Assembly (NCBI GenBank): GCA_963726745.1
Contig: CAVSDR010000003.1
Coordinates: 480,001 to 544,000 of the forward strand
DNA: 64,000 bases
Reading direction: 5' to 3'
Origin: an uncultured Verrucomicrobiae bacterium
Lineage (GTDB): Bacteria; Verrucomicrobiota; Verrucomicrobiia; Chthoniobacterales; UBA10450
The position numbers were made by a program, and so were the translations under genes. Shown piece after piece: positions 25,767 through 41,297 of the stretch. Under the pieces are notes generated by a model that saw nothing but the letters and a program-made list of their open reading frames with translations, did no database searches and had not been told where the DNA came from. The first letter of the stretch is position 1. Each line of letters starts with the position of its first letter.

Positions 25767-25805
25767 AAACCTGCGGCAGGAGCGATTCCCGCCGCAGGTT
25801 TTTTA
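25767..25805. terminator. Intrinsic terminator between convergent genes, probably bidirectional
   Basis: AAACCTGCGGC...GCCGCAGGTTTTTT. Confidence 0.8.
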
Positions 25806-27218
25806 TTTCGCGGCCGCTTTGATGATCCGCAGGTCCTCGAGGAAGAGCGCATACTCGCGCGCGCGCGATTCCTCGTCCGGCTGCCGCAGAAGCGACGACG
25901 GATGCACGGTGGCAATCGTCTGCGCGGAGAACTCCGATTCAAGAATCTCCCCACGCTGTTTCGTTACCCGGAAGTTGCTGCCTAAGATCGCCTGCGCCGC
26001 GGTCGCGCCCAGGCAGACCAGCACCGCCGGCTTCACCGCGCGCAGCTCCGCCTCCATCCACGGGCGGCAGGCGGCGATCTCGCGCGAGTTCGGCTTTTGA
26101 TGGATGCGCCGCTTGCCGCGCGGCTCCCACTTGAAGTGCTTCACCGTGTTGGTCACGTAGACCAGCGAGCGATCGATCCCGGCTTCCTCCAGCGCGCGAT
26201 CAAGCAATTGCCCCGCGGGCCCGATGAACGGCTTCCCGGCGAGGTCTTCCTGGTCGCCCGGCTGTTCGCCCAGCATCATGATCGTCGCTTTTTTTGGGCC
26301 TTCGCCGAAGACGGTTTGCGTGGCGCGTTTGTAGAGGTGGCAGGCGGTGCATGCCTTCGCCGCGTCGGCTAGTTTCTCCAGGCTGGCCGTCTCCGGCACG
26401 GGTGCCGGCTGCCATTCCTCCACCGCATCCGCGGTCTTGCGCTCGCTTTTTTTTACCATCGCCTCGACCCTTCGCGGCGCTTCCTGGAGAAGTGATGGAA
26501 TCAGCACCGCCTCCGGGAGATTGCCCCAATATTTCTTCGGCATCTCCGCCTGCATTGCGTGCACTTTCACGCGACCGGGATTGAAAATGTTCGCGTAGTA
26601 GGTCAGCCAGAGGCCCTCGATCTTGTCGTCTGTCGGCGCCTGCGAACGATCGACGCCCTCGGTAAAAGTCAGCTCGCGCCCATCCCAGTGCGCGCAGCGT
26701 TCCGGGGTCAGGATCGACCAGCGCATCGAGGCAAAGCGATCCACGAAAAAGCCGGCGTTGAATTCCACGATGTGATGCGCCGGCTCGAACCAGGCGACGA
26801 ACCACTTCTCGCCGCCTTCAAGTTCCATCTCCCGGAAGCGGACAAAGGCGCGCATCTTGTGCACGTCGCGCCGGATCGCTTTCTGGAACTCAAAGGCCAG
26901 CGCGGTGTCGGGATCGACCGAAATCTCGAGCAGCTTCGGCTCGCCGTGCGTCAGCCGCCAAACCAGGCGGTAAAGCAAAGCCCAGCGGCGCTCGTCGCGA
27001 TGGAGCGCGACCACGCGCGCCAGCTCCACGAAAGCCTTCGGCACGCGGAAGCGAGTCGTTTCGCTGACCGGCTCTGCTTCTTCGAAAATATCCAGCGCCG
27101 GCTGTTCGCCAGTGAGTTCCTGCCAGACAACCTCTTCCGGCGCGATCCCCGCCTGCAAGGCGCTGCGCGCGGCGCGCTGCCAATCCGCAAACGTCGGGCG
27201 AAAACTGACCTGCCGCAC
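25803..27218 (-). CDS. DUF4130/TIGR03915-like domain fused to UdgX-type uracil-DNA glycosylase
   Basis: N-terminal HKMRAFVRF..WFEP.H.I..RF..M.WSILTP; C-terminal C..C, GEQPGDQED, KRRIH (UdgX signature), HPS. Confidence 0.92.
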   Translation of the reverse strand: MRQVSFRPTFADWQRAARSALQAGIAPEEVVWQELTGEQPALDIFEEAEPVSETTRFRVPKAFVELARVVALHRDERRWALLYRLVWRLTHGEPKLLEISVDPDTALAFEFQKAIRRDVHKMRAFVRFREMELEGGEKWFVAWFEPAHHIVEFNAGFFVDRFASMRWSILTPERCAHWDGRELTFTEGVDRSQAPTDDKIEGLWLTYYANIFNPGRVKVHAMQAEMPKKYWGNLPEAVLIPSLLQEAPRRVEAMVKKSERKTADAVEEWQPAPVPETASLEKLADAAKACTACHLYKRATQTVFGEGPKKATIMMLGEQPGDQEDLAGKPFIGPAGQLLDRALEEAGIDRSLVYVTNTVKHFKWEPRGKRRIHQKPNSREIAACRPWMEAELRAVKPAVLVCLGATAAQAILGSNFRVTKQRGEILESEFSAQTIATVHPSSLLRQPDEESRAREYALFLEDLRIIKAAAK

Positions 27219-27222
27219 GGCG

Positions 27223-28485
27223 CTAGAGCTGGCCGTCGAGCACCGAGGCCTCGGGTTGCGCAAACAAATCCAGTTGCCGCTCCGGCGGCTTGAAGCGCGC
27301 CGGCAAATCCGTGCGATCGATGGCCAGATTGGCCGAGTTGTAATCCGCGGTAATCACGAAGGGCAGCACCTTCTTCACCGAAACGTGGAGCCGCGGGAGG
27401 TCATCGAGTCGCAGCTTGTGCCAGCGGCGCACGCGCACGATGCGCTCCACCGATTTGGTCCCGAGACCCGGGATGCGCAGGAGCATTTCTTTAGGCGCCT
27501 TGTTCAGGTCGACCGGAAATTGCGCGCGATGCCGCAAAGCCCAGGCAAGCTTCGGATCGATCGCGAGATCGAGGTTCGGCGCCGAAGGCGTCGTCAATTC
27601 TCCATGTTGAAATCCATAAAAGCGCACCAGCCAATCGGCCTGGTAAAGCCGATGCTCACGCACCAGCGGCGGCGCGATCAACGGCAGACGACTGGACGCA
27701 TCCGGAATCGGGCTGAATGCGGAGTAATAGACTCGCCGCAGCTTCTGCTTCGTGTAGAGCGAGGTCGCTTGCGCGAGGATGGCCGCATCCGGCGTGTCGG
27801 TCGCGCCCACGATCATCTGCGTGCTCTGCCCCGCAGGCGCGAAGACCGGCGCCTTGCGGCTCTCGCGCCGTTCGATCTTGGACTGCGTGATCCGGTCCTT
27901 GATCTCGAGCATGGCCGCTTCCGTGCGCGCGAAATTTTTCTGCGGCGCCAATTCCTCCAGCGCCACCTTGGTCGGCAGCTCGATGTTGATGCTGATGCGA
28001 TCGGCCCAGCGCCCCGCCTCCGCGATCAAAGCCGGCGACGCTTCCGGAATTGTCTTCAGGTGAATGTAGCCGCGAAACTGGTGCTCGGTGCGAAGAGTCC
28101 GCGCGACCGCAACCACCTGCTCCATGGTGTAATCGGCATTGCGGATAATCCCCGAGCTAAGGAAGAGCCCTTCGATGTAATTTCGCCGGTAAAAATCGAG
28201 CGTCAGCTTGACCACTTCCTCGGCGGTGAAACGCGCCCGCTGCACGTCGCTGCTGACGCGGTTGATGCAATAAAGACAGTCGTAGATGCAGAAATTAGTC
28301 AGCAGGATCTTGAGCAGGGAAACGCAGCGACCATCGGGCGTGTAGCTGTGGCAAATGCCCGAGCCGGTGGTCGAGCCGAGGCCGCCGGCAACGGTCGATT
28401 TGCGCTTGGTCGTGCCGCTGCTGGCGCACGACGCATCGTATTTTGCCGCGTCGGCGAGGATGGCGAGTTTGCTGGCTAAATCCAT
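27223..28485 (-). CDS. Putative DNA modification/repair radical SAM protein (TIGR03916-like) with HhH motif
   Basis: KL.IL.D.AKYD.SC, GICHS..DGRC.SLLK, CIYDCLYC, REHRLYQADWL.RFYGF. Confidence 0.93.
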   Translation of the reverse strand: MDLASKLAILADAAKYDASCASSGTTKRKSTVAGGLGSTTGSGICHSYTPDGRCVSLLKILLTNFCIYDCLYCINRVSSDVQRARFTAEEVVKLTLDFYRRNYIEGLFLSSGIIRNADYTMEQVVAVARTLRTEHQFRGYIHLKTIPEASPALIAEAGRWADRISINIELPTKVALEELAPQKNFARTEAAMLEIKDRITQSKIERRESRKAPVFAPAGQSTQMIVGATDTPDAAILAQATSLYTKQKLRRVYYSAFSPIPDASSRLPLIAPPLVREHRLYQADWLVRFYGFQHGELTTPSAPNLDLAIDPKLAWALRHRAQFPVDLNKAPKEMLLRIPGLGTKSVERIVRVRRWHKLRLDDLPRLHVSVKKVLPFVITADYNSANLAIDRTDLPARFKPPERQLDLFAQPEASVLDGQL

Positions 28486-28532
28486 GAGGGCCCCGAGACG
28501 CAATACGCTGCCAACGCGCCCGAAGACGCTCA

Positions 28533-28546
28533 CGTTCGTTTGAACT
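28533..28546. promoter_or_regulatory. Candidate LexA (SOS) box
   Basis: CGTTC-GTTT-GAACT matches 8/10 positions of the Verrucomicrobia LexA consensus TGTTC-N4-GAACA; ~50 bp upstream of the rSAM-UdgX operon. Confidence 0.5.
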
Positions 28547-29325
28547 TACGCCCGCGGCAAGGCCTGGCGCGCGAGAAACTCATCTGCCAGCGCGCCATAA
28601 GCCTTCGCGCCACTCCCGTTGGGCGCGTAGTCGAAGATCGATTGGGCAAAGCTCGGCGCCTCGCTCAGGCGGACCGTGCGTGGGATGACCGTCTGGTAAA
28701 CCTGCGCGCCGAAATGCTCCCGCACTTCCGCCACCACCTGCGCGCTCAGGTTCGTGCGACCGTCATACATCGTCATGAGAATGCCGCGTAATTCCACGTG
28801 ATCGTTCGCGCCGGAGTCGCGGATTTGCTGGATCACGCGCACGATTTTCACCAAGCCCTCGAGCGCGAAAAATTCGCACTGGATCGGCGTGAGCAACTCA
28901 TCCGCGGCCGCGAGCGCGTTTGTCATCAGGATGCCTAACGAGGGCGGGCAATCGAGCAGGATGTAATCGAAGGTATCGTCAGCGCGCAGTGGCTCAAGCG
29001 TGGTCCGGAGGCGCGTGAGATGATTCTCCATCCGCGCGATCTCGATCTCAGCGCCGGCCAGGTCGAGATCGGCCGGGATCAGAAAAAGGCCGTCCACGCG
29101 TGTCGGCAGGACTTTTTCCACGATCGAAGCCTCGCCCAGGAGCGGCCCGTAGAGACTCTCGCCTTCGAGTTCCTGGAGGCCGAAGGAACTGGTCGCGTTG
29201 CCTTGCGGGTCGAGATCGATCAAGAGCACGCGCTGGCCGCGAAGCGCGAGCGCGCAGCCGAGATTGACCGCGGTGGTGGTCTTCCCCACGCCGCCTTTTT
29301 GGTTCGCGATCGCGACGGTTTTCAT
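28546..29325 (-). CDS. parA: ParA/Soj family ATPase
   Basis: NQKGGVGKTTTAVN, DLDPQGNAT, DCPPSLG, PIQCEFFALEG, IPR.VRLSEAPS. Confidence 0.93.
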   Translation of the reverse strand: MKTVAIANQKGGVGKTTTAVNLGCALALRGQRVLLIDLDPQGNATSSFGLQELEGESLYGPLLGEASIVEKVLPTRVDGLFLIPADLDLAGAEIEIARMENHLTRLRTTLEPLRADDTFDYILLDCPPSLGILMTNALAAADELLTPIQCEFFALEGLVKIVRVIQQIRDSGANDHVELRGILMTMYDGRTNLSAQVVAEVREHFGAQVYQTVIPRTVRLSEAPSFAQSIFDYAPNGSGAKAYGALADEFLARQALPRA

Positions 29326-31478
29326 GAGCGCGGGACGAGCAGGCTCCGCAGCTCGAAGGTGCGGTGTCCATCGGCTTCCTGCCAGCAGAGATGCTCCGGA
29401 TCGGGCAGCATCTCGGTGAGCTCGAGCTCGCCCGCTTTCTTCATCCAGCGATTGAGAATCTCGAGCGAGAGATAGCTTTCGAGGTCGAGGTAGACCGGCT
29501 TGGTGTCCTTGTCGCGACCCTCGGCGCCGCTGCGGCGGAGCGCGCCCTCGGTCGGGCGGAGGTAGACGTAGCGCGGGAGATCGCGCGCGGCGCGGAGTTT
29601 TTCCACCGCGAGGACGAGCGCGGGTGCGACGCCCTGGTAATCAGCAGCCGGCAGATCTTGCTCGCTAATGATCCAGGCCCGGCGCTGCACGATCGCCCGT
29701 CCGCAACGCAGCCGCGGCAGGTGCGGGAGGCCGCCGAAGTGGAACGGGTGAAAGCCCAACGGGATAAGCCAGGCGCGCGCGAAAGAGCCGAGGTATTCCT
29801 TGTTTCCCGCGCGCCGAAATCCGACGTCGCCCGTCGTCTCGTCGAGGAACACTTCCGTCTCCGCGGGCGCGACCTGCCGCCAACTCTTATCGGCACGCTG
29901 GTCGGCGACAAAGTAAGTGAGCTCAGGCAGCGCATCGAACAGCCGCACGGTGGTGTGCGCGGTGAAGTCGGCGGCAAAAAAGCCGTAATGCACGCTCGGC
30001 TTCCCGCCGGTAGTGCGGGCGAGCGCGGCGCGGAGCGCGGGTTTGTCCGGGCAACTCCAGTAAAGCGCGTGATGCAGGAGCGCGACCGGCGGATGGAATT
30101 CGCCCACGATCCACTCGTATTCGCCGAGCGTCACGGCCTCAAAGGAGCGCGCGGAAAGCTGCAGGTCGGCGGCCGGGTAAGTGTATTCGTCGAAGGCGGG
30201 GAACTCGAAATTCTCGCGCACGAAGGCGCAGTCTTTCGCGGTCAGATTCCACTCGGCTTCGTGCGCGTGCGCCTCCGCCATCTTGCGGAAAGCGGCTTTC
30301 ACTTCGGCAAAAGCGATCGCGGCTGGCGCGACCAAGCCGACGCCGGTGAGCGGGAGATTTTTGGCCGCGCAATGCGCGAGGAACTCCGGCAACGGCATGG
30401 CGCCGTCTTTGGCGTCCGCGGAGCGCAGCATCCCGGCGAGCGCCTGGGCCACGCGGTGCGCGACGAAGTTGTAGACGTCGCGCCAAAGGCCAAACCACGG
30501 CTCGATGTCAGCCGTGAGCTGTTCGACCATTTCGTGCGTGATGCTGAAGTTCGCCTCGCGCCGGCATTCCTCGGCGATCGGATTGGCCGCGGCGTAAAGA
30601 AAGCGGCGACCGGTGCTGAGCTTGCCGCCTAAATCATCGAGCGCGCGGCGGGCTTCGCTCATGAGCGCGGCCCGCTGCTCGAGATCGGCCGTGCCAGCGA
30701 AGTTGCTGCCTAACGACTGGAGATGCTGCGCGCGCTCATGCCAGGGCGAGTCCGGCGCCATCTCGCTGGCTAAAATCGCGAAGGCTTCCGGCTCCATCGC
30801 CGGGACCGCGAGATCGCCCGCGGCCGCGGCGAGGGTGTGCGCGGCCCAGCGCTCGAGAAAACTGATTCGCTCCGCGATCCCCGGCTGCGGCTCAAAGCGC
30901 AGGGTGTCGGCAATCGTGCCCCAGGCGGACGGCCCGAACTCGCTGTAGGTATCGTTCTTCCCGCAGACGCGCTGGAGGTAGAGATAAAGGTGACGCTCGT
31001 GCTCACGCGCGCGGGCGTTACGCGGTGGCAGCGGTTCGCCGGCCACGGGCAGGCGGTCGCGGAATTCGCCCGCGGAAAAGAGCAGATAGCCGGGCAAAAC
31101 CGTGCGGCTGGATTCCAACAAGGAAGCACGCGCGGCTTCCATTTCGCGGCTGAGCGTGCTGGCTAATTCCCGCTCGAGTCCGGCCGTTGCTTCGCGTTGG
31201 CGGATGAACTCGGCGAGCGCCCCCGGCAGGTCGGCCGTGGATTTTTCCCCGCCGCGCAGGAGCGCCCGGCAGGCGCGCGATTCCTCCGCGCTGAGACCGC
31301 TCGCGCGCGCGCCGACAAATTCCTCGGCCCGCTGCCGCGCCGCCGCGAGTTCCTTCTGCCTAACGAGCAGTGCACGCGCAAGGCGCGAGCTTTCGCTGGT
31401 GGCGAGCCGCAGAAGATGCTCGAACGGGACGCCCGTCGCCCGAATCAAAAAAGGCGAGGCAAGGGTGACGGACGACAC
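29322..31478 (-). CDS. Lantibiotic-dehydratase N-domain-only protein (small LanB / PEARL-like peptide aminoacyl-tRNA ligase)
   Basis: YLQRVCGKNDTYSEFGP..WG, GEFH, PRL...IVQR..W, LPRYVY, KP.YLD.ES, EMLPDPE.L...G..T.ELR; no elimination domain. Confidence 0.85.
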   Translation of the reverse strand: MSSVTLASPFLIRATGVPFEHLLRLATSESSRLARALLVRQKELAAARQRAEEFVGARASGLSAEESRACRALLRGGEKSTADLPGALAEFIRQREATAGLERELASTLSREMEAARASLLESSRTVLPGYLLFSAGEFRDRLPVAGEPLPPRNARAREHERHLYLYLQRVCGKNDTYSEFGPSAWGTIADTLRFEPQPGIAERISFLERWAAHTLAAAAGDLAVPAMEPEAFAILASEMAPDSPWHERAQHLQSLGSNFAGTADLEQRAALMSEARRALDDLGGKLSTGRRFLYAAANPIAEECRREANFSITHEMVEQLTADIEPWFGLWRDVYNFVAHRVAQALAGMLRSADAKDGAMPLPEFLAHCAAKNLPLTGVGLVAPAAIAFAEVKAAFRKMAEAHAHEAEWNLTAKDCAFVRENFEFPAFDEYTYPAADLQLSARSFEAVTLGEYEWIVGEFHPPVALLHHALYWSCPDKPALRAALARTTGGKPSVHYGFFAADFTAHTTVRLFDALPELTYFVADQRADKSWRQVAPAETEVFLDETTGDVGFRRAGNKEYLGSFARAWLIPLGFHPFHFGGLPHLPRLRCGRAIVQRRAWIISEQDLPAADYQGVAPALVLAVEKLRAARDLPRYVYLRPTEGALRRSGAEGRDKDTKPVYLDLESYLSLEILNRWMKKAGELELTEMLPDPEHLCWQEADGHRTFELRSLLVPRS

Positions 31479-31535: not shown

Positions 31536-32688
31536 CTATTTCGGCGGGAGCAGGGGCAGACGGATGGTGAAAGTCGTCCCCTGGTTCGGGGCGCTGTCGA
31601 CCTTGATCGAGCCATTATGATCCTCGACCACTTTCTTGGTGATGTAGAGGCCGAGGCCGGTGCCGCTTTTGCCCTGCTTGGTGGTGAAGTAGGGCTCGAA
31701 GATTTTCGGGATTTGCGCCTCGGTCATTCCGAGGCCGGTGTCGCTCACGCGCACGTCGACGTAAAATTCCTTGCGCACGCAATGCACGGTTACGCGTCCC
31801 TGGGTGTCGCCCGCGGCCTGGATGGCGTTGATGATCACGTTCTGGATGGCGCGTTTAATCTGGAGCGATTCGCCCATCAGGGTGCCGGCGTCCTCGCAAA
31901 TCTCGGTCTCCAGCTCGACGCCATTCTGCGTGGCGATGGGAGCGGCGCCTTTCACGATCTCCTGCACGATCGCGGAGATGGCGATCGGCTGGTGCGGGGC
32001 GGCCTCGACGCTGCCGTAGCTCTGCCACATGGTGAGGAGTTCGCGGCAGAGGCGGACATTCTGCTCGATGATATTCAACTCCTTCGCGGAGGTGGCAGTC
32101 TTGCCGTTCTCGGCTTCGGAGGCCTCGAGCTTTTTCGCGAGCAACTGCACGTAACCCCAGACGATCGTGAGCGGGTTTCCGAGATCGTGCACGAATTCCG
32201 CGGAAGCCTGGCCGAGCGAGGCCAGCCGCTCCTTTTGCGCAAGCTCCTTGAGCAAGCGGTTGTTGAGCTCGCGGATCTCGGTCGCCGCCGTGTCGCCAGT
32301 GCGCTGGACTGCGGGTGCGCTCGACGTTGCGGCTGATGACATCCCGCATTTCATGCGCATCGAAAGGCTTACTGATGTAGTCGTTTGCGCCCAGGCGGAG
32401 CGCTTCCTGCGCGGTCTCGAGCGCGCCAAAGCCGGTGAGCATGATCACGGCGACGTGCGGATCGATCTCGCGAATGAGACGGAGACCATCGATGCCGTTG
32501 GTTCCGGGCATGCGGATATCGGTGATGACCGCATCGGGATGCTTCTCGCGAAGAAGACGCAATCCATTTTCCACCGAGTCGGCCAGATGTACCTGATAGT
32601 TTGGCTTCAGGAGCATGCGGAGACTTTCGCGCGGCCCCATCTCATCATCGATAACGAGGACTTGAGGAAGTTCAGGGCAGGCGGTCAT
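31536..32688 (-). CDS. Hybrid receiver-histidine kinase (REC + HisKA + HATPase); 1-base insertion at ~32310
   Basis: REC IDDE..DIRMP..KPF joins in the next frame to ..VQRTG..FVHDLGNPL..NAIQA..DTG.G..FTTK..GTGLGL. Confidence 0.88.
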
Positions 32689-32710
32689 AGGAGAAAGCAA
32701 AGCCAGAGAA

Positions 32711-32726
32711 AGCTAAGGCCGTGCCG
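32711..32726 (-). promoter_or_regulatory. sigma54 (-24/-12) promoter candidate for the REC-HK gene
   Basis: Minus strand CGGCACGGCCTTAGCT = GG-N10-GC with GGCACG core. Confidence 0.6.
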
Positions 32727-32748
32727 TGGCCGAATGGAATCTTTCGAC

Positions 32749-32764
32749 CGGCACGCTTTGCGCA
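32749..32764 (+). promoter_or_regulatory. sigma54 (-24/-12) promoter candidate for the ketosynthase-kinase operon
   Basis: CGGCACGCTTTGCGCA = GG-N10-GC with GGCACG core. Confidence 0.5.
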
Positions 32765-32919
32765 TAAAATCCGCCGCCGCATTGGCTGCCAAGAAACAGC
32801 CGCCATTGGAAGATGCAACTTGTGAATCCGAAACGATCTGCGCCATATACATAAAGTTTACGAATGCGTAAAGACTGGTTTTGGAGCGAAAACAGCAGCG
32901 CACGTGACAGTTACTGGAA

Positions 32920-34164
32920 ATGCATAAGCGAAATCGGGTGGTGGTGACGGGGATGGGCGTACTCGCTCCAAACGGCACCGGGTTAAAGGCCTTTTGGGAA
33001 TCGCTTCTGGAGGGACGAAGCGGGATCGGGCCGATCACGCTCTTCGATGCCACCGGCTACAAAAGCCGGATCGCGGGCGAGGTAAAAGACTTCGATCCGC
33101 TGGATTATATGGAGGCAGAACTAAAACCAAAGCGGATGGCACGGCATACGCAGTTGGCCTACGCCGCAACCATGATGGCGCTACGCGACGCAGGCCTGGA
33201 CCTGAACAATCTTGAACTCCCGAGCCCGACCCCGGTAATCATCGGGGTAAGCATGAATGCGATGGATGTGGTCGAGCGAGCTTTTCATGTTGTGCAAAAC
33301 GTGAGTCCGAATCGTGCGGCCCCCACAACCTCGGCTGCTTCCATCCCACAAGCGCCGGCGAACGTGATCGCTGATCGCTTGGGTGCCTGTGCGAATGCTT
33401 CCACCGTTTCCTCGGCCTGCCCTTCTGGACTCGACGCCTTGGCCGATGCCGCAGCGATGATCCGCAGCGGAGAGGTTGAATTGGCCGTAGCCGGCGGAAC
33501 GGACGCCCCAATCACTCCATTGGTGATGGCCAGCTTTATCGCCAGCGGCCTTAGTTCGCATAGAAACGACGAGCCCGAAAAAGCGAGTCGGCCCTTTGAT
33601 ATCGATCGCGACACTGGCGTCATTTCCGAAGGCGCAGGCATCATGATTCTCGAAAATCTAGAACGGGCGGAGGCTCGGGGCGCGCGGATTTACCTGGAGA
33701 TCGAGAGCTACGGGAAACAGCGCGACCGCGATCCGGAACGGCCCGCGTCTGGCCTGGAGGACTCGATGCACATCGCGCTGGGTAATGCCGGCTGGACCCC
33801 GGACGACGTGGATTACATATCCGCCTACGGGCCCGGTCACCCGATTCTTGACGCGGCTGAAATCCGGGTAGTGAAGAAATTCTTCGGGGCTCGCTCGTCC
33901 CTGATCCCGGTGAACTCGATTAAAGGCTCAACCGGGAATGCGCTCGCCGCGGGGGGGCCGTTTCAGGTGATCGCCTCCGCCCTCGCGATTCAGCACCAGC
34001 TGATCCCGCCGACGGCCAACTGCGATGTCCTGGATCCGTCCATCGACATGGATATCGTCCGATTTAAGCCGCGCAGGATTAAATTGAGCCGGCTTTTGAT
34101 CAACGTTCGCGGTCTGGGGGGAAGCGCCAGCACCATGGCCGTGAGCCAAGTAAATGGCCGATGA
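32920..34164 (+). CDS. FabF-like beta-ketoacyl synthase with an altered active site (Cys kept; both His lost)
   Basis: RVVVTGMG, SACPSG, SRPFD..R, EGAG..ILE; SAYGPG in place of NAHGTS; KGSTGN in place of KS.TGH; NVRGLGG in place of NSFGFGG. Confidence 0.9.
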   Translation: MHKRNRVVVTGMGVLAPNGTGLKAFWESLLEGRSGIGPITLFDATGYKSRIAGEVKDFDPLDYMEAELKPKRMARHTQLAYAATMMALRDAGLDLNNLELPSPTPVIIGVSMNAMDVVERAFHVVQNVSPNRAAPTTSAASIPQAPANVIADRLGACANASTVSSACPSGLDALADAAAMIRSGEVELAVAGGTDAPITPLVMASFIASGLSSHRNDEPEKASRPFDIDRDTGVISEGAGIMILENLERAEARGARIYLEIESYGKQRDRDPERPASGLEDSMHIALGNAGWTPDDVDYISAYGPGHPILDAAEIRVVKKFFGARSSLIPVNSIKGSTGNALAAGGPFQVIASALAIQHQLIPPTANCDVLDPSIDMDIVRFKPRRIKLSRLLINVRGLGGSASTMAVSQVNGR

Positions 34165-36683
34165 GTGGAGCGGCCATCTCCACCCTCATTGCGATTGCAG
34201 TCCAAGTCGCACTGGGATTAGCGGTCTACCAAGCGAATCGCCACCGTCGAGCAAACCAAAGCTTTCTACTGCTCTCGGGGGTGATTGGCATCTGGCTGGG
34301 AAGTCTCTACCAAACTATGACGGTGAGCCGCAGCGGCGAAGCGCTGTTCTACATCCGGCAAGCATCGGCCGCCGGGGCCTACATCTTGGTTGCTTTTCAC
34401 ATCCTTCGTTTGTCGATGCAGACAGGCGAGCACTCCTGGAAAGTCATTTTTTTCAAGGCCCGCTGGTGGCTGGGGATGGGCACGGCCGTTGCGGTTTTCT
34501 GCCAGACAAACTTTTTCCTGAAAGGAGTCAGCTGGACGCAGTCAGCAACATCTGGAGTTCCGACGCCAACGCCGGTCTACGGAACGGCTGCCTTCGTCTT
34601 CGTGGCCTATTTCATCATCGCGGGCGTTTCCTACGTGGTTGGATATGCCCGCGATCTGCGCCGCTCCAGCGGACGCCAGCAGGCTGAGATCGCCTTTATC
34701 CTCATCGGCGCGGTCGTGACGCTGGCCACTGTGCTGATCGCCTTTGTCCTGCGCTTCTTTGTTGATCAATCCCGGTTGATCTGGTTCGCGCCTTTTCGGA
34801 TCGTTCTCTTCAGCCTCATCATTGCCTACGGCATCGCGACCCAAAAGATCATGGAGGTGGGTCTCTTTATAAGGCGCGCGATTGGCTACAGCCTTCTCAC
34901 CCTTTACCTCCTCGCGCTTTACGGAGTCGTTTGGTGGCTGGTTCTCACCGTGGCGGGGCCCGTCTTTGCCGGTGATGCCTCCCGCATCGCCCATGTCCTG
35001 GCCGCCATCGCGATTGCTTTCGCCATGGCCCCTGCACGGGGAGTTTCTCAAGGCGTGGCCGACCGGCTATTCATAGGATCACGCCGCCTCGATTTTCGCG
35101 CCACGGTGAACAAGGCCATTGCCATCCTCCGGTCAGTCAGCACCATCAGCGAGTTGCTCGAAAAATTTGCCACCACCATCGCCGAGGCGGTGGATACCGA
35201 CCGCATCCTCATTCTGCAGCCGAGTCGCATCGGCTTTGCCCAGCAATACCCCCCATTGCCTGCGACCGGAAGAGTCGGCTTGATCGAGCTGAGTAAAGAC
35301 GATCCGCTGATTCGGCACCTCGAAATGAGTCCGGAACCGATCGTCCTGGACGAGATCAATCTCATCCGGCCGACTCCGCAAATGGAGCGTGTCGCCCGAC
35401 GAATGGGCTCGATTCAGATTGCGGTCGCCGTCGGCATTTTCTCCCGCGACCAACTTGCCGGCGTCCTGCTTCTAGGGCCTCGCCGCTCTGGCCAAATCTA
35501 TGGGAGCGCCGAGCAAAACGCACTGCAAGTGCTTTCGGGGCAGCTCGCGGTGGCGATCGAAAACGCGCACCTCTTTACCGAAGTGCAGAACGCGAAGATC
35601 TACAACGAAACCCTGCTGCAAAACATGACCACGGGGGTAATCGCGGCCGATGTGGACGGGCTGATTTCCGTCTTCAACCGGGAGGCGGAGCAGATCACCA
35701 ATCTGTCCTCGACAAATCTCGTGGGCGAAGCGGTCTACGTTTTACCGCTGGCCTTGCGCGAGGTCATCCAGGACACCCTGCGCTCCGGCGAGCGGCAGGA
35801 GAATCGGGAGCTCGAGCTGCAGGCAAAAGGCGAGGAAGTGATCGTGCGCGCGAGCAGCTCGGTCTTCCACGGCGAGGATGGGACCATGCTCGGCGCGATG
35901 ATGGTGTTGACCGATGTGACCGCGCTGAAGCGCCTGGAATTGCAGATTCGCCGGAGCGATCGCCTCGCCAGCCTGGGCACGCTTTCCGCCGGGATGGCGC
36001 ACGAAATCAAGAACCCGCTGGTCTCGATCAAAACCTTTGCGCAACTCTTGCCAGAGCGGTATCAGGACAGCGATTTCCGCGAGACTTTCTCGAATCTCAT
36101 CGGGCACGAGATCGACCGGATCGACTCCCTCGTGAACCAATTGCTCCGTTTCGCCAAGCCGACCAAGCCGCTCCTCAAGCCCGTGCACTTGCACGAAGTG
36201 CTGGAAAAGTCGCTCATGCTCGTCGGGCACCGCCTCTACCAGAAAGAAATCAAATTAACTCGTTCGTGGAATGCGGATGTGGATACTATCCGCGCTGATG
36301 GCGACCAGATGGAGCAGGTTTTCCTTAACTTTTTCCTGAACGCCATGGACGCGATGCAGCAGGGCGGCGAGCTCACCGTCTCCACCGAAATCCGCCCCGC
36401 AAATGACTGGGCGGCGCTCAAGGGCACCGGTCGCAGCGGCGAAATCCTGCGCGTGACCGTGCGCGACAACGGCGAGGGCATCAAGGCCGAGAACGTGGCC
36501 CACGTCTTCGATCCATTTTTTACCACCAAGGACTACGGCACCGGCCTCGGCCTTTCCGTGGTCCATGGGATTGTGCAGGAACATGGCGGCCAAATCGAAG
36601 TAGAGAGCGAGCTCGCCCAGGGAACCTCGTTCCACATCCTCCTCCCCTTGGTGCGCTTCGTTGAGGAGGTCGCCGCCGCATGA
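34161..36683 (+). CDS. Multi-TM (7TM-like) GAF-PAS sensor histidine kinase
   Basis: About 9 hydrophobic helices, GAF ending AVAIENA, PAS GVIAAD.DG.I..FN..AE, MAHEIKNPL, NAMDAM, FFTTK..GTGLGL. Confidence 0.92.
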   Translation: MSGAAISTLIAIAVQVALGLAVYQANRHRRANQSFLLLSGVIGIWLGSLYQTMTVSRSGEALFYIRQASAAGAYILVAFHILRLSMQTGEHSWKVIFFKARWWLGMGTAVAVFCQTNFFLKGVSWTQSATSGVPTPTPVYGTAAFVFVAYFIIAGVSYVVGYARDLRRSSGRQQAEIAFILIGAVVTLATVLIAFVLRFFVDQSRLIWFAPFRIVLFSLIIAYGIATQKIMEVGLFIRRAIGYSLLTLYLLALYGVVWWLVLTVAGPVFAGDASRIAHVLAAIAIAFAMAPARGVSQGVADRLFIGSRRLDFRATVNKAIAILRSVSTISELLEKFATTIAEAVDTDRILILQPSRIGFAQQYPPLPATGRVGLIELSKDDPLIRHLEMSPEPIVLDEINLIRPTPQMERVARRMGSIQIAVAVGIFSRDQLAGVLLLGPRRSGQIYGSAEQNALQVLSGQLAVAIENAHLFTEVQNAKIYNETLLQNMTTGVIAADVDGLISVFNREAEQITNLSSTNLVGEAVYVLPLALREVIQDTLRSGERQENRELELQAKGEEVIVRASSSVFHGEDGTMLGAMMVLTDVTALKRLELQIRRSDRLASLGTLSAGMAHEIKNPLVSIKTFAQLLPERYQDSDFRETFSNLIGHEIDRIDSLVNQLLRFAKPTKPLLKPVHLHEVLEKSLMLVGHRLYQKEIKLTRSWNADVDTIRADGDQMEQVFLNFFLNAMDAMQQGGELTVSTEIRPANDWAALKGTGRSGEILRVTVRDNGEGIKAENVAHVFDPFFTTKDYGTGLGLSVVHGIVQEHGGQIEVESELAQGTSFHILLPLVRFVEEVAAA

Positions 36684-38686
36684 CCCTGCCTCCGGTCTGC
36701 ATCTTGTACAGTCAGGATGCCGACCTTGTCCGGCGCGTAAAAGCCTTCCTGCGGCTCGTCGCCCAGGTGCGTCACGTCGGCCAACTCGACCGGCTCGATG
36801 CCGTCCTGCAACAGGCCAGCCCGGCGTTGCTCTTCCTTGACCTGCGCGCGGAAGGCGCGCGCGATCTCGTCGGCCAGGTGCAAAAGGAGTGGCCGGAAGT
36901 TTTACTCACCGCGCTGGGTGCGCCGCGCTCCGAGCCGCTGCGCGAGGCCGAACAATGCGGCATCTATGCGGTGGAGGATTTGCAACTCGATCGCCGGCGC
37001 TTCCAGGCACTCGTTAGCCGCGGCTTCGATCACCTCCGCTTGATGCAAGAAAACCGCGAGCTGCGCGACCAAAACAACGCCACCCCTACGCCGGAACCGC
37101 CGCGCCGGCTGGACCAGACGCCCGACCGCTACGCCCCTTCCATGCCGCTGCTGCGCTTCCCGCGCGTCTTCCGCCGCTTCGATAATGTCGAGACGCTGCT
37201 CGCGACCGTCGTGGAAGGTGTGGCCGATGCCGCCGGGGTCACGCGCGTGGGTATTTTCTCGCGCATCCGCCAGAGCGATCGCTACCGCCTGCGCGCCGGG
37301 CTGCGTTGTCTCCAGGAAACTTACGAGATCGAATATGGCGAGCGCGACGCCCTCGTGCGCTGGTTCGAGCTGCATGCGCATTTGATTTGCCGGAACAATC
37401 TCGCGCAGGCTTCCGATGCTCCGCAGCGCGCCCTCATGCGCCGCGCGCTCGATACTTTTGGCGCCGAGGTCATCGTCCCGCTCTACGCTCGCGGGAGCAT
37501 CATCGGCTGGCTCTTCTTTGGCCACAAAGTCACCGGGCAACGCTTCGAATATCCCGACCTCGAGAACCTGATGATGCTCGCGGAGCATGTCTCGACCGTG
37601 CTCGAGAATGCCCTCCTCTACGAGGAAGTGACGGTGCAGAAAACTCTCGCCGAGACGCTCCTGAAATCGATTCCGCCGGGCATTGTTGCGACCGACGAGG
37701 ACGCGATCATTCGCTGGTTCAACCCGACCGCCGAACAAATCCTCGGCCTGCGCGCGGAGGACGTGATCAACCATCCCGTCGAGGCCGCCGGCACCCGGCT
37801 CGCCTCATTCCTGCGCGAAACTCTCGAGGCGAAATCCCATCTTCCTTCGCAGCAATGGATCGACGCCAACACCCGGCGTTCTCTCTCGGTGGAGACGCGG
37901 CGCCTCGTCGGCGAACGCACCCCATTGGGCGCCGTTGCGGTAGTGCAGGACCTGACGAACGAAGAGAGCCTGCGGCAAAAGAAAGACCTGCTCGATCGCG
38001 CCGCTTTCTGGACCGATCTGGCCGCAAGCATGTCGCACGAAATTCGTAATCCGCTGGTCGCGATCAAAACCTTCGCGCAGCTCCTGCCGGAGCGCTTCGA
38101 GGACGAGGATTTCCGGCGCGACTTCAATCACATCGTCGTCGAGGAGGTCGATCGCCTCGATAAGATCATCAGCCAAATCAACGACTTTGCGCATCCGCCG
38201 GAGTTGATCATGCGCCCGATCGACCTGCGTGCTTCCGTGCGCCGCGCGCTCGAGGTCGCACGTGAGAAGTTTCACACCAATGGCACCCCGGTGGAAATCG
38301 ACCTGCCGCCCGATCTCCCTCGCGTCCTCGGCGATGAAGGCGCACTCACCGAAGCCTTCGCCCATCTCGTTGCCAATGCCGCCGAGGCCACTCACGGCCA
38401 GGCGAAACCGAAGATCACCCTCGCGGCCAAATCCATTCGCACCGGCGAGGCCACCAGCGGCGTCGTCGTGATCGTGCAGGATAACGGCGGCGGCATTTCG
38501 CCCGATCTGAAGGACAAAGTCTTCTCGCCTTTCTGCACCACCAAGGCCCGCGGCATGGGCCTGGGCCTCCCGATCGTCAAGCGCACCGTGTTCGATCACA
38601 ACGGCCGCGTGGACATCGACTCGAACCCGCAGGGCACCTCCGTCAGCGTCATGCTTCCGGTGACGGAGTTGCGGCTTTCTTCCTAG
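36680..38686 (+). CDS. Soluble kinase: degenerate receiver + GAF + PAS + HisKA/HATPase
   Basis: N-terminal REC-like fold without the acidic pair or KP; MSHEIRNPLVAIKTFAQLLPER; DNGGGI, FCTTK..GMGLGL. Confidence 0.88.
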   Translation: MTLPPVCILYSQDADLVRRVKAFLRLVAQVRHVGQLDRLDAVLQQASPALLFLDLRAEGARDLVGQVQKEWPEVLLTALGAPRSEPLREAEQCGIYAVEDLQLDRRRFQALVSRGFDHLRLMQENRELRDQNNATPTPEPPRRLDQTPDRYAPSMPLLRFPRVFRRFDNVETLLATVVEGVADAAGVTRVGIFSRIRQSDRYRLRAGLRCLQETYEIEYGERDALVRWFELHAHLICRNNLAQASDAPQRALMRRALDTFGAEVIVPLYARGSIIGWLFFGHKVTGQRFEYPDLENLMMLAEHVSTVLENALLYEEVTVQKTLAETLLKSIPPGIVATDEDAIIRWFNPTAEQILGLRAEDVINHPVEAAGTRLASFLRETLEAKSHLPSQQWIDANTRRSLSVETRRLVGERTPLGAVAVVQDLTNEESLRQKKDLLDRAAFWTDLAASMSHEIRNPLVAIKTFAQLLPERFEDEDFRRDFNHIVVEEVDRLDKIISQINDFAHPPELIMRPIDLRASVRRALEVAREKFHTNGTPVEIDLPPDLPRVLGDEGALTEAFAHLVANAAEATHGQAKPKITLAAKSIRTGEATSGVVVIVQDNGGGISPDLKDKVFSPFCTTKARGMGLGLPIVKRTVFDHNGRVDIDSNPQGTSVSVMLPVTELRLSS

Positions 38687-38755: not shown

Positions 38756-39703
38756 ATGATCGTCACCACCGACCAGCTTTACAAAGTCGCCTACAAGAAA
38801 TTCGCCGTCGGCGCTTACAACATCAACAACCTCGAGCAGACCATGGGGCTCTTCCGCGGCAACGTGCAGAGCAAAGCCCCGTTCATCATCCAGCTGTCTA
38901 AAGGCGCGCGGAATTACACCGACAAGCGCATGCTCGAAGCGATCATCCGCACCGCGGAGGAAATTTTCCCCGACGCAATCTTCGCGGTGCATCTCGACCA
39001 CGGCGACGAACAGACCTGCTACGACTGCATCGATAGCGGCTTCTACAGCTCGGTCATGATCGATGCGAGCCACGAGTCCTTCGAGGAAAACATCGCCATC
39101 ACCAAGCGCGTGGTCGAGCGCGCGCATGCCAAGGGCATCAGCGTCGAGGCGGAGCTCGGGATGCTCGGCGGCGTGGAGGAAGACATCAAAGTCGACGAGA
39201 AACACGCCTGCCTAACGAACCCTGAAGAAGCGGTCGAGTTCGTCAAGCAAACCGGCTGCGACTCGCTCGCGGCCGCGATCGGCACCAGCCACGGCGCCTA
39301 CAAATTCAAGGGCCAGCAGTCGCTCCGCTTCGACGTCATCGAGGCGATCTCCCAGAAGTGCCCCGGGATGCCCATCGTGATGCACGGCAGCTCCAGCGTG
39401 CCGGTCGAAGAGGTCAAACGAATCAACGCAGCCGGCGGCCAGCTCGACCCGAGCGCGCGCGGGGTGAACGAAGAGGAATACCTTCCGGCCGCCAAACTCG
39501 GCGTGACCAAGGTGAACATCGACACCGATGGCCGCCTCGTCTGGACGCGCGTGCACCGCGAGTTCTTCCGCGACAAGCCGGCCGAATTCGACTTCCGTCC
39601 GCCGGGCAAAGTTTTCATGCAGGCCTACGCCGATTTCATCGCGCACAAGAACGAGAAGCTCGGCTCGGCCGGCAAGCTCGACGAGATTCGCGCGAGCCTG
39701 TGA
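38756..39703 (+). CDS. fba: Class II fructose-bisphosphate aldolase
   Basis: HLDHG, SSVMIDASH, VEAELG, GTSHGAYK, VMHGSS, KVNIDTD. Confidence 0.95.
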   Translation: MIVTTDQLYKVAYKKFAVGAYNINNLEQTMGLFRGNVQSKAPFIIQLSKGARNYTDKRMLEAIIRTAEEIFPDAIFAVHLDHGDEQTCYDCIDSGFYSSVMIDASHESFEENIAITKRVVERAHAKGISVEAELGMLGGVEEDIKVDEKHACLTNPEEAVEFVKQTGCDSLAAAIGTSHGAYKFKGQQSLRFDVIEAISQKCPGMPIVMHGSSSVPVEEVKRINAAGGQLDPSARGVNEEEYLPAAKLGVTKVNIDTDGRLVWTRVHREFFRDKPAEFDFRPPGKVFMQAYADFIAHKNEKLGSAGKLDEIRASL

Positions 39704-40720
39704 CGTTTACCGTCCAGGAATTGGCGGCGATTTCCGGCGGTGAGATCGTGGGCGATCCGCAGCAGTGTGTCACCGGCGCGGCGCCGCTCGGCGAGGCTGG
39801 CGAAGGTGACCTGACCTTCTTCGGCCACCCGAAATACGCCGCGCAACTTCGGCGCACCAAAGCGTCGGCTATTTTTGTCCCGGCCGATTTTGCCGAAGCG
39901 ACACCAGCGGTCCAAATCCGCGTGGAAAATCCCGCGAGGGCGTTCCAGGAAGTCGTCCTCAAGCTCGCGCCCGAGCCGGTGCGTTTCGCTCCCGGAATCC
40001 ATCCAAGCGCCGTGATCGCAGCGGACGTGAAGCTCGGCGCAGATGTCTCCGATCCAGCCGCATGCGATCATCGAGGCAGGCGTGGAAATCGCCGAGCGCA
40101 CCGTCATCGGCGCGAACTGCTATCTCGGTCACGGAACGAAGGTCGGGGCGGATTGTTTGCTCTATCCAAACGTTGTCGTCCGCGAACGCACCGTCATCGG
40201 CGCGCGCGTGATCTTGCACAGCGGCGTGGTCCTCGGCGCGGATGGTTTTGGCTTCGAGATCGTGGAAGGCCGCCAGCAAAAAGTCCCGCAAATCGGGATC
40301 GTGCAGATCGATGACGACGTGGAGATCGGCGCGAACAGCACCGTGGATCGCGCACGCTTTGGCCGCACCTGGATTCAGCAAGGTGCGAAGATCGACAACC
40401 TGGTCATGATCGCGCACAACGTCGTGGTGGGCGCGCATTCCGTGATCGCCGCGCAGACCGGCGTCGCCGGCAGTTCGCGCCTCGGCGCTTATGTCATGAT
40501 CGGCGGGCAAGCCGGCATTACCGGACATGTGGAAGTCGGCGAGCAGGTGATCATCGGTGCCAAAACCGGCGTCTCGAAAGATCTTCCCGCGAAGAGCGGG
40601 ATCTGGTGGGGCATCCCAGCCGCGCCCATTCGCGAGTCGCACGAGCAGCTCGCGTGGATTCGCCGGCTGGGGAAACTCTTCGCGCGGGTAAAGGCGCTGG
40701 AAGAGAAGCTCGGGAAATAG
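39700..40720 (+). CDS. lpxD: UDP-3-O-acylglucosamine N-acyltransferase; 1-base insertion at ~40050
   Basis: TFTVQELA..G..GD..GIHPSAVI in one frame; hexapeptide repeats, G.DGFGF, KVPQ.G.V, GANSTVDR, KIDNLV.IAHN in the +1 frame. Confidence 0.93.
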
Positions 40721-40796
40721 CCGGCAACTTCACGCCGCCTAACGAGTCCCCGCTTTTTCCGGGAAGAACCGGCGCAGCGTGAAGCTTGCGCGGCCG

Positions 40797-40812
40797 TGGC
40801 AAGGCACCTGCT
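40797..40812 (+). promoter_or_regulatory. sigma54 (-24/-12) promoter candidate
   Basis: TGGCAAGGCACCTGCT = TGGC-N9-GC followed by AT-rich sequence; ~35 bp before the ATG at 40848. Confidence 0.6.
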
Positions 40813-40847
40813 TTATAGTAATTATAAGCCGAACCAGCCACCCAACT

Positions 40848-41297
40848 ATGAAACTTCTCTCCCGCGCCGAGACCGAATTCCTCATCATCGACGACGATCC
40901 CGCGATCGCGAAATTCCTCGTCACCTACCTGCAGCAAAAAGGCCACACCTGCGAGTCGCTCACCGAAGGCTTCCGGACCGCCGCTTGGCTCGAGCACAAT
41001 CGTTGCGACGTCGTGATTGTGGATTTGAACATGCCCAAGGTGGACGGCATCTCGCTGATTACTTACATCCGCGAAATGAGCACCACGCTTCCGATCATTG
41101 TCTTCACCGGCGTGGGCTATGATGAAGAGCGCATGCACACCGCGCTCCGCGCCGGGGCCAACGGCTACGTGAGCAAGAATCTCCCGGTGGAACAACTTTA
41201 CTGCGTCCTCTCCCGCGTCCTCGCCACCTGCCAGCAGCGCGCCCGGCGCGATGCGCTGAACGTCCGCGCGCACCACGCGCTTGCCGGCGCCGCCTAA
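40848..41297 (+). CDS. Single-domain response regulator
   Basis: IIDDD, DLNMP..DG, FTG, YVSK. Confidence 0.9.
   Translation: MKLLSRAETEFLIIDDDPAIAKFLVTYLQQKGHTCESLTEGFRTAAWLEHNRCDVVIVDLNMPKVDGISLITYIREMSTTLPIIVFTGVGYDEERMHTALRAGANGYVSKNLPVEQLYCVLSRVLATCQQRARRDALNVRAHHALAGAA

Follow-up and report, generated by a model that had tools for sequence, protein, structure and literature searches.

A FabF-like ketosynthase with an altered active site is conserved alongside histidine kinases in Chthoniobacterales and distant relatives

Organization of the locus

A four-gene locus in the genome of an uncultured soil bacterium (Verrucomicrobiota; Chthoniobacterales; UBA10450) encodes a FabF-like, non-canonical ketosynthase (KS) together with three histidine kinases. 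The locus lies in a 64,000-nucleotide stretch of assembly GCA_963726745.1 (contig CAVSDR010000003.1, positions 480,001 to 544,000), hereafter the window, which has a G+C content of 62% and whose first letter is position 1 in the coordinates used here (Table 1). The KS gene is followed by genes for a membrane kinase (HK1) and for a second kinase with an atypical receiver (HK2). The KS/HK1 and HK1/HK2 junctions, at 34161 and 36680, both read as ATGA overlaps, and Pfam annotation places fba directly after HK2. A third kinase, carrying a receiver (REC) domain, is encoded divergently and is called the REC-kinase below. No acyl carrier protein (ACP), fab or polyketide synthase (PKS) family was found among the open reading frames (ORFs) scanned at about 17.6-49.5 kb of the window. 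The locus has neither an acyl-activating gene nor a second KS gene; the KS paralogues are encoded elsewhere in the genome.

Table 1. Features of the ketosynthase-kinase locus, in window coordinates
Feature	Position	Strand	Basis
FabF-like non-canonical ketosynthase (KS), 414 aa	32920-34164	+	PF00109 + PF02801, codons, alignment to 1j3n, AlphaFold
HK1, multi-pass membrane (HisKA_7TM)-GAF-PAS-HisKA-HATPase kinase, 840 aa	34161-36683	+	Pfam, conserved boxes
HK2, atypical receiver-GAF-PAS-HisKA-HATPase kinase, 668 aa	36680-38686	+	Pfam, predicted receiver fold
Divergent REC-HisKA-HATPase kinase, frame-broken in the assembly	31536-32688	-	REC in frame A, HisKA/HATPase in frame B
Sigma-54-type -24/-12-like element CGGCACGGCCTTAGCT	32711-32726	-	38 nt upstream of the REC-kinase start
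Intergenic region between the divergent genes, with a conserved block (GCAAG..TGCAACTTGTGAAT) ahead of the KS operon	32689-32919	.	Alignment of 11 genomes

The ketosynthase: fold and active site

By fold, the KS is a FabF relative. It matches PF00109 and PF02801 (E 1.6e-47 and 7.8e-21), its AlphaFold model (pLDDT 94.7) superposes on FabF structures at TM 0.94-0.95, and it shares the two-domain thiolase fold and 33-40% identity with FabF/KAS II (TIGR03150; 1j3n, 4jpf, 1kas). The nucleophilic Cys167 (codon TGC, 33418), Lys335 (AAA, 33922), Asp311 and Glu314 are likewise retained. Yet four of the five features that define FabF are missing: the Cys-His-His triad, the gating Phe pair, the DAxH(I/M)T loop and a score above the cut-off of the TIGR03150 fabF equivalog model (350 bits against 493.75). 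Only the two-domain fold is kept.

Alignment with the solved FabF 1j3n pairs INAHGTSTP with ISAYGPGHP, STKSMIGHLLGAAG with SIKGSTGNALAAGG, and NSFAFGG with NVRGLGG, which stands in place of the FabF motif NSFGFGG; the DAHHIT loop carries a 4-residue deletion. Residue by residue, His303 is replaced by Tyr (TAC, 33826), His340 by Asn (AAT, 33937), Thr305 by Pro and Thr307 by His. The setting differs as well, since the KS has none of the fab/ACP context of FabF and heads a kinase operon. Four further KS paralogues in the genome all have the canonical Cys-His-Lys-His set with gating Phe, and a kinase core is found within 6 kb of none of them (0/4). Identity as a chain-length factor (KS-beta) was ruled out by the retained Cys and the lack of an adjacent KS-alpha partner gene.

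The co-encoded kinases HK1 and HK2

HK1 and HK2 have near-identical H-boxes, MAHEIKNPLVSIKTFAQLLPERY and MSHEIRNPLVAIKTFAQLLPERF respectively, with the common core IKTFAQLLPER. In HK1, the H, N, G1, F and G2 boxes are conserved across 11 orthologues and the hydrophobic segments fall within residues 1-294. Residues 1-320 of HK1 score 30.4 bits against HisKA_7TM (PF16927; threshold 28.6), the whole protein scores 27.1 bits, and the HK1 orthologue at locus L059 reaches 41.1 bits.

The N-terminal 150 aa of HK2 adopt a receiver fold in the predicted model (pLDDT 92.8), with the receivers of HupR, NtrC1 and NtrX as its closest matches (TMq ~0.76). Among 53 orthologues, D54 at the acceptor position and G80 never vary and D13 and S84 vary little; another residue takes the place of the beta5 Lys. 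This domain is almost invisible to the Pfam REC model (PF00072), which gives no match in three of four orthologues and 17 bits in the other.

Neither kinase could be assigned to two known families that were tried. Against PrsK (TIGR02916; cut-off 300), HK1 and HK2 score 86.7 and 99.2 bits; against AtoS (NF008468; cut-off 646), they score 346.8 and 232.5 bits. In the part of the source available to us, PrsK is linked to PEP-CTERM genes and a ketoacyl synthase is not mentioned (Haft 2006).

Much of this layout had been anticipated in an original prediction, made by a model from the sequence alone. Its gene coordinates agree with the ORF positions, and the alignments and codons bear out its description of a KS that keeps Cys167, has Tyr and Asn at the catalytic His positions, lacks the DAYH loop and carries NVRGLGG. 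The two ATGA overlaps, the shared H-box core, the 7TM-like character of HK1 and the lack of an adjacent ACP or fab/PKS gene were also read correctly. Two details needed amendment. The divergent REC-kinase gene is present but is not a single frame, having one extra base near 32310. The HK2 N-terminus, described as a 'pseudoREC', does lack the beta5 Lys but has a confident receiver fold with Asp at the acceptor position; judged from the predicted model, 'atypical receiver' is the better term.

Conservation and selection within the family

The Cys-Tyr-Lys-Asn-Arg signature (positions 167, 303, 335, 340 and 397) is present in 121/121 sequences, comprising the query and its 120 best database homologues at 70-100% identity; those homologues with a name are proteins of Chthoniobacterales metagenome-assembled genomes (MAGs). 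At E<=1e-100, an orthologue is found in 10 of the family's 11 other genomes and in none of 109 genomes from the order's other families. In all 11 family genomes carrying the gene, the frame is intact and the signature is the same. The ratio dN/dS is 0.05-0.11 in the three of eight pairs for which it was computable; dS is saturated or undefined in the other five, and the ratios are rough, upper-type values.

Gene order is also fixed. The arrangement of ParA, LanB-like gene and REC-kinase on one side and KS, HK1 and HK2 on the other is identical in 10/10 family relatives, so that the order KS, 7TM-GAF-PAS kinase, receiver-GAF-PAS kinase is common to the window and all of these loci; the 4-nt HK1/HK2 overlap is found in 11/11 family genomes. 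Because this synteny spans unrelated flanks, the argument for linkage rests on distant loci.

The module in distant genomes

A phylum-wide search recovered KS relatives at 42-49% identity in 38 genomes, all outside the class to which the window belongs. In the 20 distant loci fetched, the KS is always followed by ORFs of ~813-895 and 656-1002 aa. Pfam annotation of eight distant loci identifies these as a HisKA_7TM/GAF/PAS kinase and then a GAF/PAS kinase. Downstream lies a sigma-54 NtrC-type regulator or, in L061, a short REC-HTH_8 protein; the divergent side carries a gene for a FadL/TodX outer-membrane channel and then a REC-HisKA-HATPase gene. Scanning one genome per species added 80 loci, with record names from Kiritimatiellia, Victivallales/Lentisphaeria, Verrucomicrobiota, Omnitrophota, Ratteibacteria and one Armatimonadota MAG; the scan used a His-containing pattern, which biases counts at position 303 to His. 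The KS-kinase-kinase operon is found in Kiritimatiellia, Lentisphaeria, Omnitrophota and Ratteibacteria relatives at 42-57% KS identity.

Counted over loci with enough flanking DNA, an HK1 N-terminus lies directly downstream of the KS in 62/69 distant loci and an HK2 N-terminus comes next in 46/56. A sigma-54 regulator follows HK2 in 36/51, and the divergent side carries FadL in 49/56 and the REC-kinase in 47/56. Most misses fall in the most divergent Omnitrophota/Ratteibacteria branch, where the queries may fail. The KS and HK1 genes are tightly joined: the conserved HK1 N-terminus begins no later than the KS stop codon in 49 of 66 distinct loci, and in the others the gap is 1-30 nt (nine loci), 31-100 nt (three) or more than 100 nt (five). 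On this comparison of sequences, the KS-kinase linkage is ancient.

A further gene recurs after the REC-kinase. The 35 ORFs retrieved there include five from genomes fetched twice and represent 30 distinct loci, of which 17 have a FAD-linked oxidase (FAD_binding_4, ~535 aa) and nine a SAM methyltransferase (six class I, two O-MT, one PEMT/ICMT); the other four comprise two PHP proteins, one Rce1-like protein and one without a match.

One subclade, made up of L061, L063, L071 and L072 from a single family of the phylum, has the KS signature Cys-Asn-Arg-His-His. There, HK2 is followed by a regulator of ~192-199 aa, a short REC-HTH_8 protein with no sigma-54 AAA+ domain, as judged by Pfam on L061 only.

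Active-site history

Column counts over 100 non-identical module KS show which positions are held and which drift. Cys167 is the only invariant residue among the catalytic positions tabulated (100/100); Lys335 is present in 96, and Asp311 and Glu314 are kept. Position 303 is His in 85, Tyr in 11 and Asn in 4, with His inflated by the search pattern, and Trp occurs there in further representatives. Position 305, Thr in FabF, is Pro in 92. Position 340 is Asn in 88, Cys in 4, His in 4, Ser in 3 and Asp in 1, and position 397, Phe in FabF, is His in 86, Arg in 12 and Tyr in 2. The loop is 4 residues shorter in 84 of the 100. Among 20 distant loci free of the pattern bias, 16 have Cys-His-Lys-Asn-His and four have Cys-Asn-Arg-His-His. 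Across the clade, the apparatus for malonyl decarboxylation, made up of the second His, both Thr of HGTST, the gating Phe and the DAxH(I/M)T loop, is replaced.

In the KS tree, the family sequences with Cys-Tyr-Lys-Asn-Arg form one clade with L078 (SH-aLRT 97), nested inside sequences with Cys-His-Lys-Asn-His. L078 is a Chthoniobacterales MAG with the same ParA, LanB-like and fba flanks and the signature Cys-His-Lys-Asn-Arg. This nesting, taken with the state of L078, gives a stepwise order. Replacement of the second His, the loop, the Thr pair and the first gating Phe dates to the ancestor shared by the kinase-linked clade. The change of His397 to Arg belongs to the Chthoniobacterales lineage, as does the loss of FadL and the regulator from the locus, and the change of His303 to Tyr is the last, family-specific step.

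A reduced module in the Chthoniobacterales family

Of the ancestral cassette, the Chthoniobacterales family retains hardly more than KS, HK1, HK2 and the REC-kinase. The space between REC-kinase and KS holds no FadL gene, and neither tblastn nor the Pfam model finds a match to the FadL family (PF03349) in the assembly, which is 94.7% complete. The sigma-54 regulator of the module is likewise not in the locus; its best matches in the genome are generic NtrC-type genes at 35-43% identity.

Two candidate sigma-54 activators lie outside the window. A stretch resembling a sigma-54 AAA+ activator lies on contig 3 (477418-478371), 1.6 kb before the window start, and is matched from the AAA+ domain onward only. 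An NtrC-type regulator adjoins rpoN on contig 6 (972601-976042) and is, by score, the second-best match to the module regulator (43% over 357 residues).

The divergent REC-kinase and the intergenic region

In the assembly, the receiver and HisKA/HATPase parts of the REC-kinase lie in different frames. Relatives read ...ERTR-VQRT... through the break point, and the gene is a single open frame in 10/10 of them (380-385 aa in nine). Its REC domain is 66% identical to that of the REC-kinase of a distant module. The lipid A gene lpxD (39694-40717, + strand), about 1-1.4 kb downstream of HK2, is likewise interrupted: an additional base near 40051 (GADVS / IQPHAIIEAG) puts its two parts in different frames, and in three relatives it is a single frame of 337-347 aa. 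Because an essential gene nearby is broken in the same way, both breaks are probably single-base insertion errors of the assembly, and the REC-kinase is not read as a pseudogene. In the public contig sets (four runs of one study), no piece spans 32079-32331.

Upstream of the REC-kinase, a sigma-54-like element, CGGCACG-N4-TAGCT, lies 32-42 nt before the start in 9/11 family genomes at the score threshold chosen; when the intergenic regions of 11 family genomes are aligned, no other block on that side is as well conserved. The genome encodes rpoN. Genome-wide, the strict motif has four matches against about three expected, which is about chance, so the element rests on positional conservation only; its use as a regulon marker was dropped on the same count. 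In a crude scan with rough start-codon calls, just 3/20 distant loci had a sigma-54-like site ahead of FadL or the upstream gene. A second exact copy of CGGCACG-N4-TAGCT occurs on contig 2 (125859, - strand), 13 nt before a 412-aa ORF; this copy and the REC-kinase promoter may be under a common regulator, or the match may be due to chance.

The KS side of the intergenic region has features of its own. In relatives L016-L022, the KS operon is preceded by two direct GTGAATAA repeats about 20 nt apart and then by TATAAT- and TAGAAT-like elements. Only the first repeat is retained in the window, where the second copy and the TATAAT-like elements are degenerate. The repeats and TATAAT-like elements may represent a putative regulator binding site with a sigma-70 promoter.

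Neighboring genes

Beyond the REC-kinase lies a gene for a 718-aa protein (29322-31478, - strand) whose sole Pfam match is the C-terminal end of Lant_dehydr_N (39.5 bits) and which the atlas groups with stand-alone 'lantibiotic dehydratase N-terminus' proteins (score 0.98). This LanB-like gene begins 58 nt past the stop codon of the REC-kinase gene, and there is a 4-nt overlap between its own stop and the start of ParA. Its synteny is confined to the Chthoniobacterales lineage, and the surrounding DNA showed no lanthipeptide genes. Farther out, a radical-SAM protein with helix-hairpin-helix motifs (25803-28533, - strand) adjoins a fusion of DUF4130 and uracil-DNA glycosylase; we take this pair to be DNA repair or modification genes, seemingly unrelated to the KS locus. 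The LanB-like, ParA and radical-SAM genes were considered as parts of the module and rejected: they are confined to loci of the Chthoniobacterales lineage, including L078, and occur in no other module locus.

On the other side, two genes past HK2, a stand-alone receiver protein (40779-41297, + strand) is syntenic at 67-82% identity in 8/10 family loci. It is a candidate phospho-acceptor or phospho-sink and is only 22-29% identical to the regulators of distant modules.

Proposed function and alternatives

Our preferred reading, held tentatively and at somewhat less than even confidence, is that the KS, folded and under selection, has lost the ability to elongate acyl chains and serves as a dedicated part of a multi-kinase signalling module, as an acyl-loading partner of the kinases. 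The KS would carry out the loading half-reaction only, with Cys167 acylated by acyl-ACP or acyl-CoA. Its loaded or unloaded state, or the hand-over of the acyl group, would be read by the co-translated kinases, and HK1 would pass phosphoryl groups to the receivers of HK2 and the REC-kinase. In the ancestral module, the sigma-54 activator would then turn on the FadL/REC-kinase operon. Since FadL was not found in the genome and the locus has no regulator, the reduced Chthoniobacterales form is proposed to monitor the cell's own acyl pool and to signal through a regulator encoded elsewhere. In favor of this reading, the KS stays with the kinases where FadL, the regulator and the tailoring gene are gone. 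Further support comes from the altered but fixed active site, the intact fold, the purifying selection, the operon linkage in distant loci, the canonical sites of the four paralogues that have no kinase neighbors, the receiver fold of HK2 with its conserved Asp and the conserved sigma-54-like element before the REC-kinase.

Several points weigh against it. Acylation and KS-kinase contact are both proposals drawn from sequence, and the synteny within the family is weak evidence, as it takes in the unrelated flanks ParA and fba. In the distant loci, the FAD-linked oxidase (17/30) or methyltransferase (9/30), together with FadL, looks like equipment for making or converting a small molecule more than for sensing alone. 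Cys-His-Asn is the triad of KAS III and chalcone-synthase enzymes, and the distant relatives with Cys-His-Asn may be true catalysts; in the KS itself, Tyr303 could still hydrogen-bond an oxyanion. The locus holds neither an ACP nor an acyl-activating gene, and the counts at position 303 are skewed to His by the search pattern.

Some of these points are the strength of the main rival, in which the KS is a signal synthase in a system resembling quorum sensing. The KS would condense its substrates, either non-decarboxylatively or with a Tyr/Asn or His/Asn oxyanion hole, and make a lipid-derived signal; in the full module, the oxidase or methyltransferase would tailor this signal, FadL would let it re-enter the cell and the 7TM region of HK1 would sense it, much as in PhcB/PhcS/PhcR and CqsA/CqsS. 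A synthase gene beside a membrane kinase is an established layout, Cys-His-Asn is present in distant modules, and these carry FadL in 49/56 loci and a tailoring gene after the REC-kinase in 26/30 distinct loci; the title of one paper reportedly links FadL to extracellular long-chain N-acyl homoserine lactones. We nevertheless place a KS of this kind on the unlikely side. Positions 303 (His, Tyr, Asn, Trp), 340 (Asn, Cys, Ser, His, Asp) and 397 (His, Arg, Tyr) drift while the Cys is fixed, which would be unusual for a conserved synthase, carrier protein and acyl-activating genes are missing from the locus, and the family KS is kept under selection though FadL, the tailoring gene and the regulator are gone. 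That last observation, together with the rarity of regulator targets as the first, translationally coupled gene of a kinase operon across phyla (49/66 overlaps), makes it distinctly improbable that the KS is simply a lipid-metabolic enzyme, remodelling or degrading an imported hydrophobic compound, that shares an operon with the two-component system controlling it; the Chthoniobacterales family has lost every other 'metabolic' part while the KS-kinase trio stays. The full module, with FadL, FAD oxidase or methyltransferase, and KS, does resemble an uptake-and-conversion cassette.

The KS could be a covalent lipid receptor, with thioester loading of the Cys by acyl-ACP or acyl-CoA as the sensed event that switches the co-translated kinases. 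This is unlikely in our estimate. If true, the KS would be an enzyme-derived, covalently charged sensor subunit for histidine kinases, of a kind not described so far, and the family would show its minimal core of KS and three kinases, with no channel, tailoring enzyme or dedicated regulator. Loss of chemistry altogether, leaving a pseudoenzyme with at most a non-covalent hold on an acyl chain or ACP and only a structural role, as an adaptor assembling or gating the kinases, would fit the tight co-translation with HK1 as well as the loss of both His and the altered gating Phe pair in the Chthoniobacterales family. Such a scaffold is very unlikely, as the retention of Cys167 (100/100), Lys335, Asp311 and Glu314 suggests that active-site chemistry is still used. 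A decaying FabF paralogue, or a chance neighbor of the kinases, can be regarded as already refuted: the lost catalytic His and the score under the fabF cut-off would suit it, but the intact frame (11/11), the uniform signature (121/121), the low dN/dS where computable, the confident fold and a linkage kept at 42-57% identity across classes and phyla do not.

These results support in part the interpretation offered in the original prediction, whose core claim survives every refutation test it had named. Selection on the KS shows no sign of the relaxation that it had raised, and the KS-kinase linkage is conserved, in 10/10 family relatives and, with a 7TM kinase directly downstream, in 62/69 distant loci. 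Homologues beside such kinases do not retain His-His, as only 4/100 keep His340 and those four have Asn303. Kinase adjacency accompanies the altered active site, the four canonical paralogues having no kinase core nearby. Since kinase-linked relatives outside the family keep the first His (Cys-His-Asn), 'His-His loss' gives way to a two-step history. The KS-kinase pairing, which recurs across a whole superphylum, is probably an undescribed lipid-linked signalling unit. The term 'undescribed' holds within the searchable literature, as a full-text literature search, which did not span all papers, found none on a KS-kinase module. A paper on an anammox FabF heterodimer reportedly concerns a pair resembling KS and chain-length factor, not a KS-kinase module.

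If the acyl-loading reading is true, two-component signalling in much of the Planctomycetota-Verrucomicrobiota-Chlamydiota (PVC) superphylum and in Omnitrophota has taken in a fatty-acid-synthase fold as a permanent component, giving a new route for reading the acyl pool or a new family of lipid signals. To our knowledge, few members of these groups have been cultured and hardly any of their signalling has been characterised. The full module is present in cultured isolates of Pontiellaceae and Kiritimatiellales, and the reduced form in the Chthoniobacterales family points to its indispensable core parts. The present analysis adds the reduced module, the order of active-site changes, the receiver fold of HK2 with its conserved Asp, the recurrent oxidase or methyltransferase, the sigma-54-like element and the likely artefactual frameshifts.

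Comparison with known systems

KS folds missing part of the Cys-His-His set are known from polyketide assembly lines, as the non-elongating KS0 domains of trans-AT PKS and as KS-beta/chain-length factors. KS0 domains keep the Cys, miss a His and merely pass the chain on; chain-length factors have no Cys. The half-reaction proposed for the KS would correspond to the chain hand-on of KS0. KS0 and KS-beta are domains or obligate partners in assembly lines, whereas the KS described here is free-standing, with no PKS, ACP or second KS gene nearby.

Enzyme-kinase pairs are familiar from alpha-hydroxyketone signalling, in CqsA/CqsS-LuxO of Vibrio and LqsA/LqsS of Legionella, where the gene for an acyl-chain-condensing enzyme adjoins that for a multi-pass membrane kinase and output runs via a sigma-54 NtrC-type regulator. 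The full distant module likewise carries a sigma-54 NtrC-type regulator (36/51 loci). CqsA is a PLP-dependent enzyme, not a thiolase-fold KS. The KS module also differs in adding two receiver-kinases, and the locus of the Chthoniobacterales family is missing the regulator and FadL.

The Phc system of Ralstonia offers a likeness in layout. As far as the portion of the source available to us describes it, the phc operon comprises phcB (methyltransferase), phcS (kinase), phcR (receiver and kinase domain) and phcQ (PMC8578825). The Phc enzyme is a methyltransferase acting on a 3-hydroxy fatty acid rather than a KS, and the Chthoniobacterales family locus has no methyltransferase, though 9/30 distinct distant loci do. 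The likeness lies in a single operon where a lipid-signal enzyme is encoded together with a sensor kinase and with a soluble receiver-and-kinase protein that has no DNA-binding domain (PMC8578825); both the REC-kinase and HK2 have the unusual receiver-kinase layout of PhcR.

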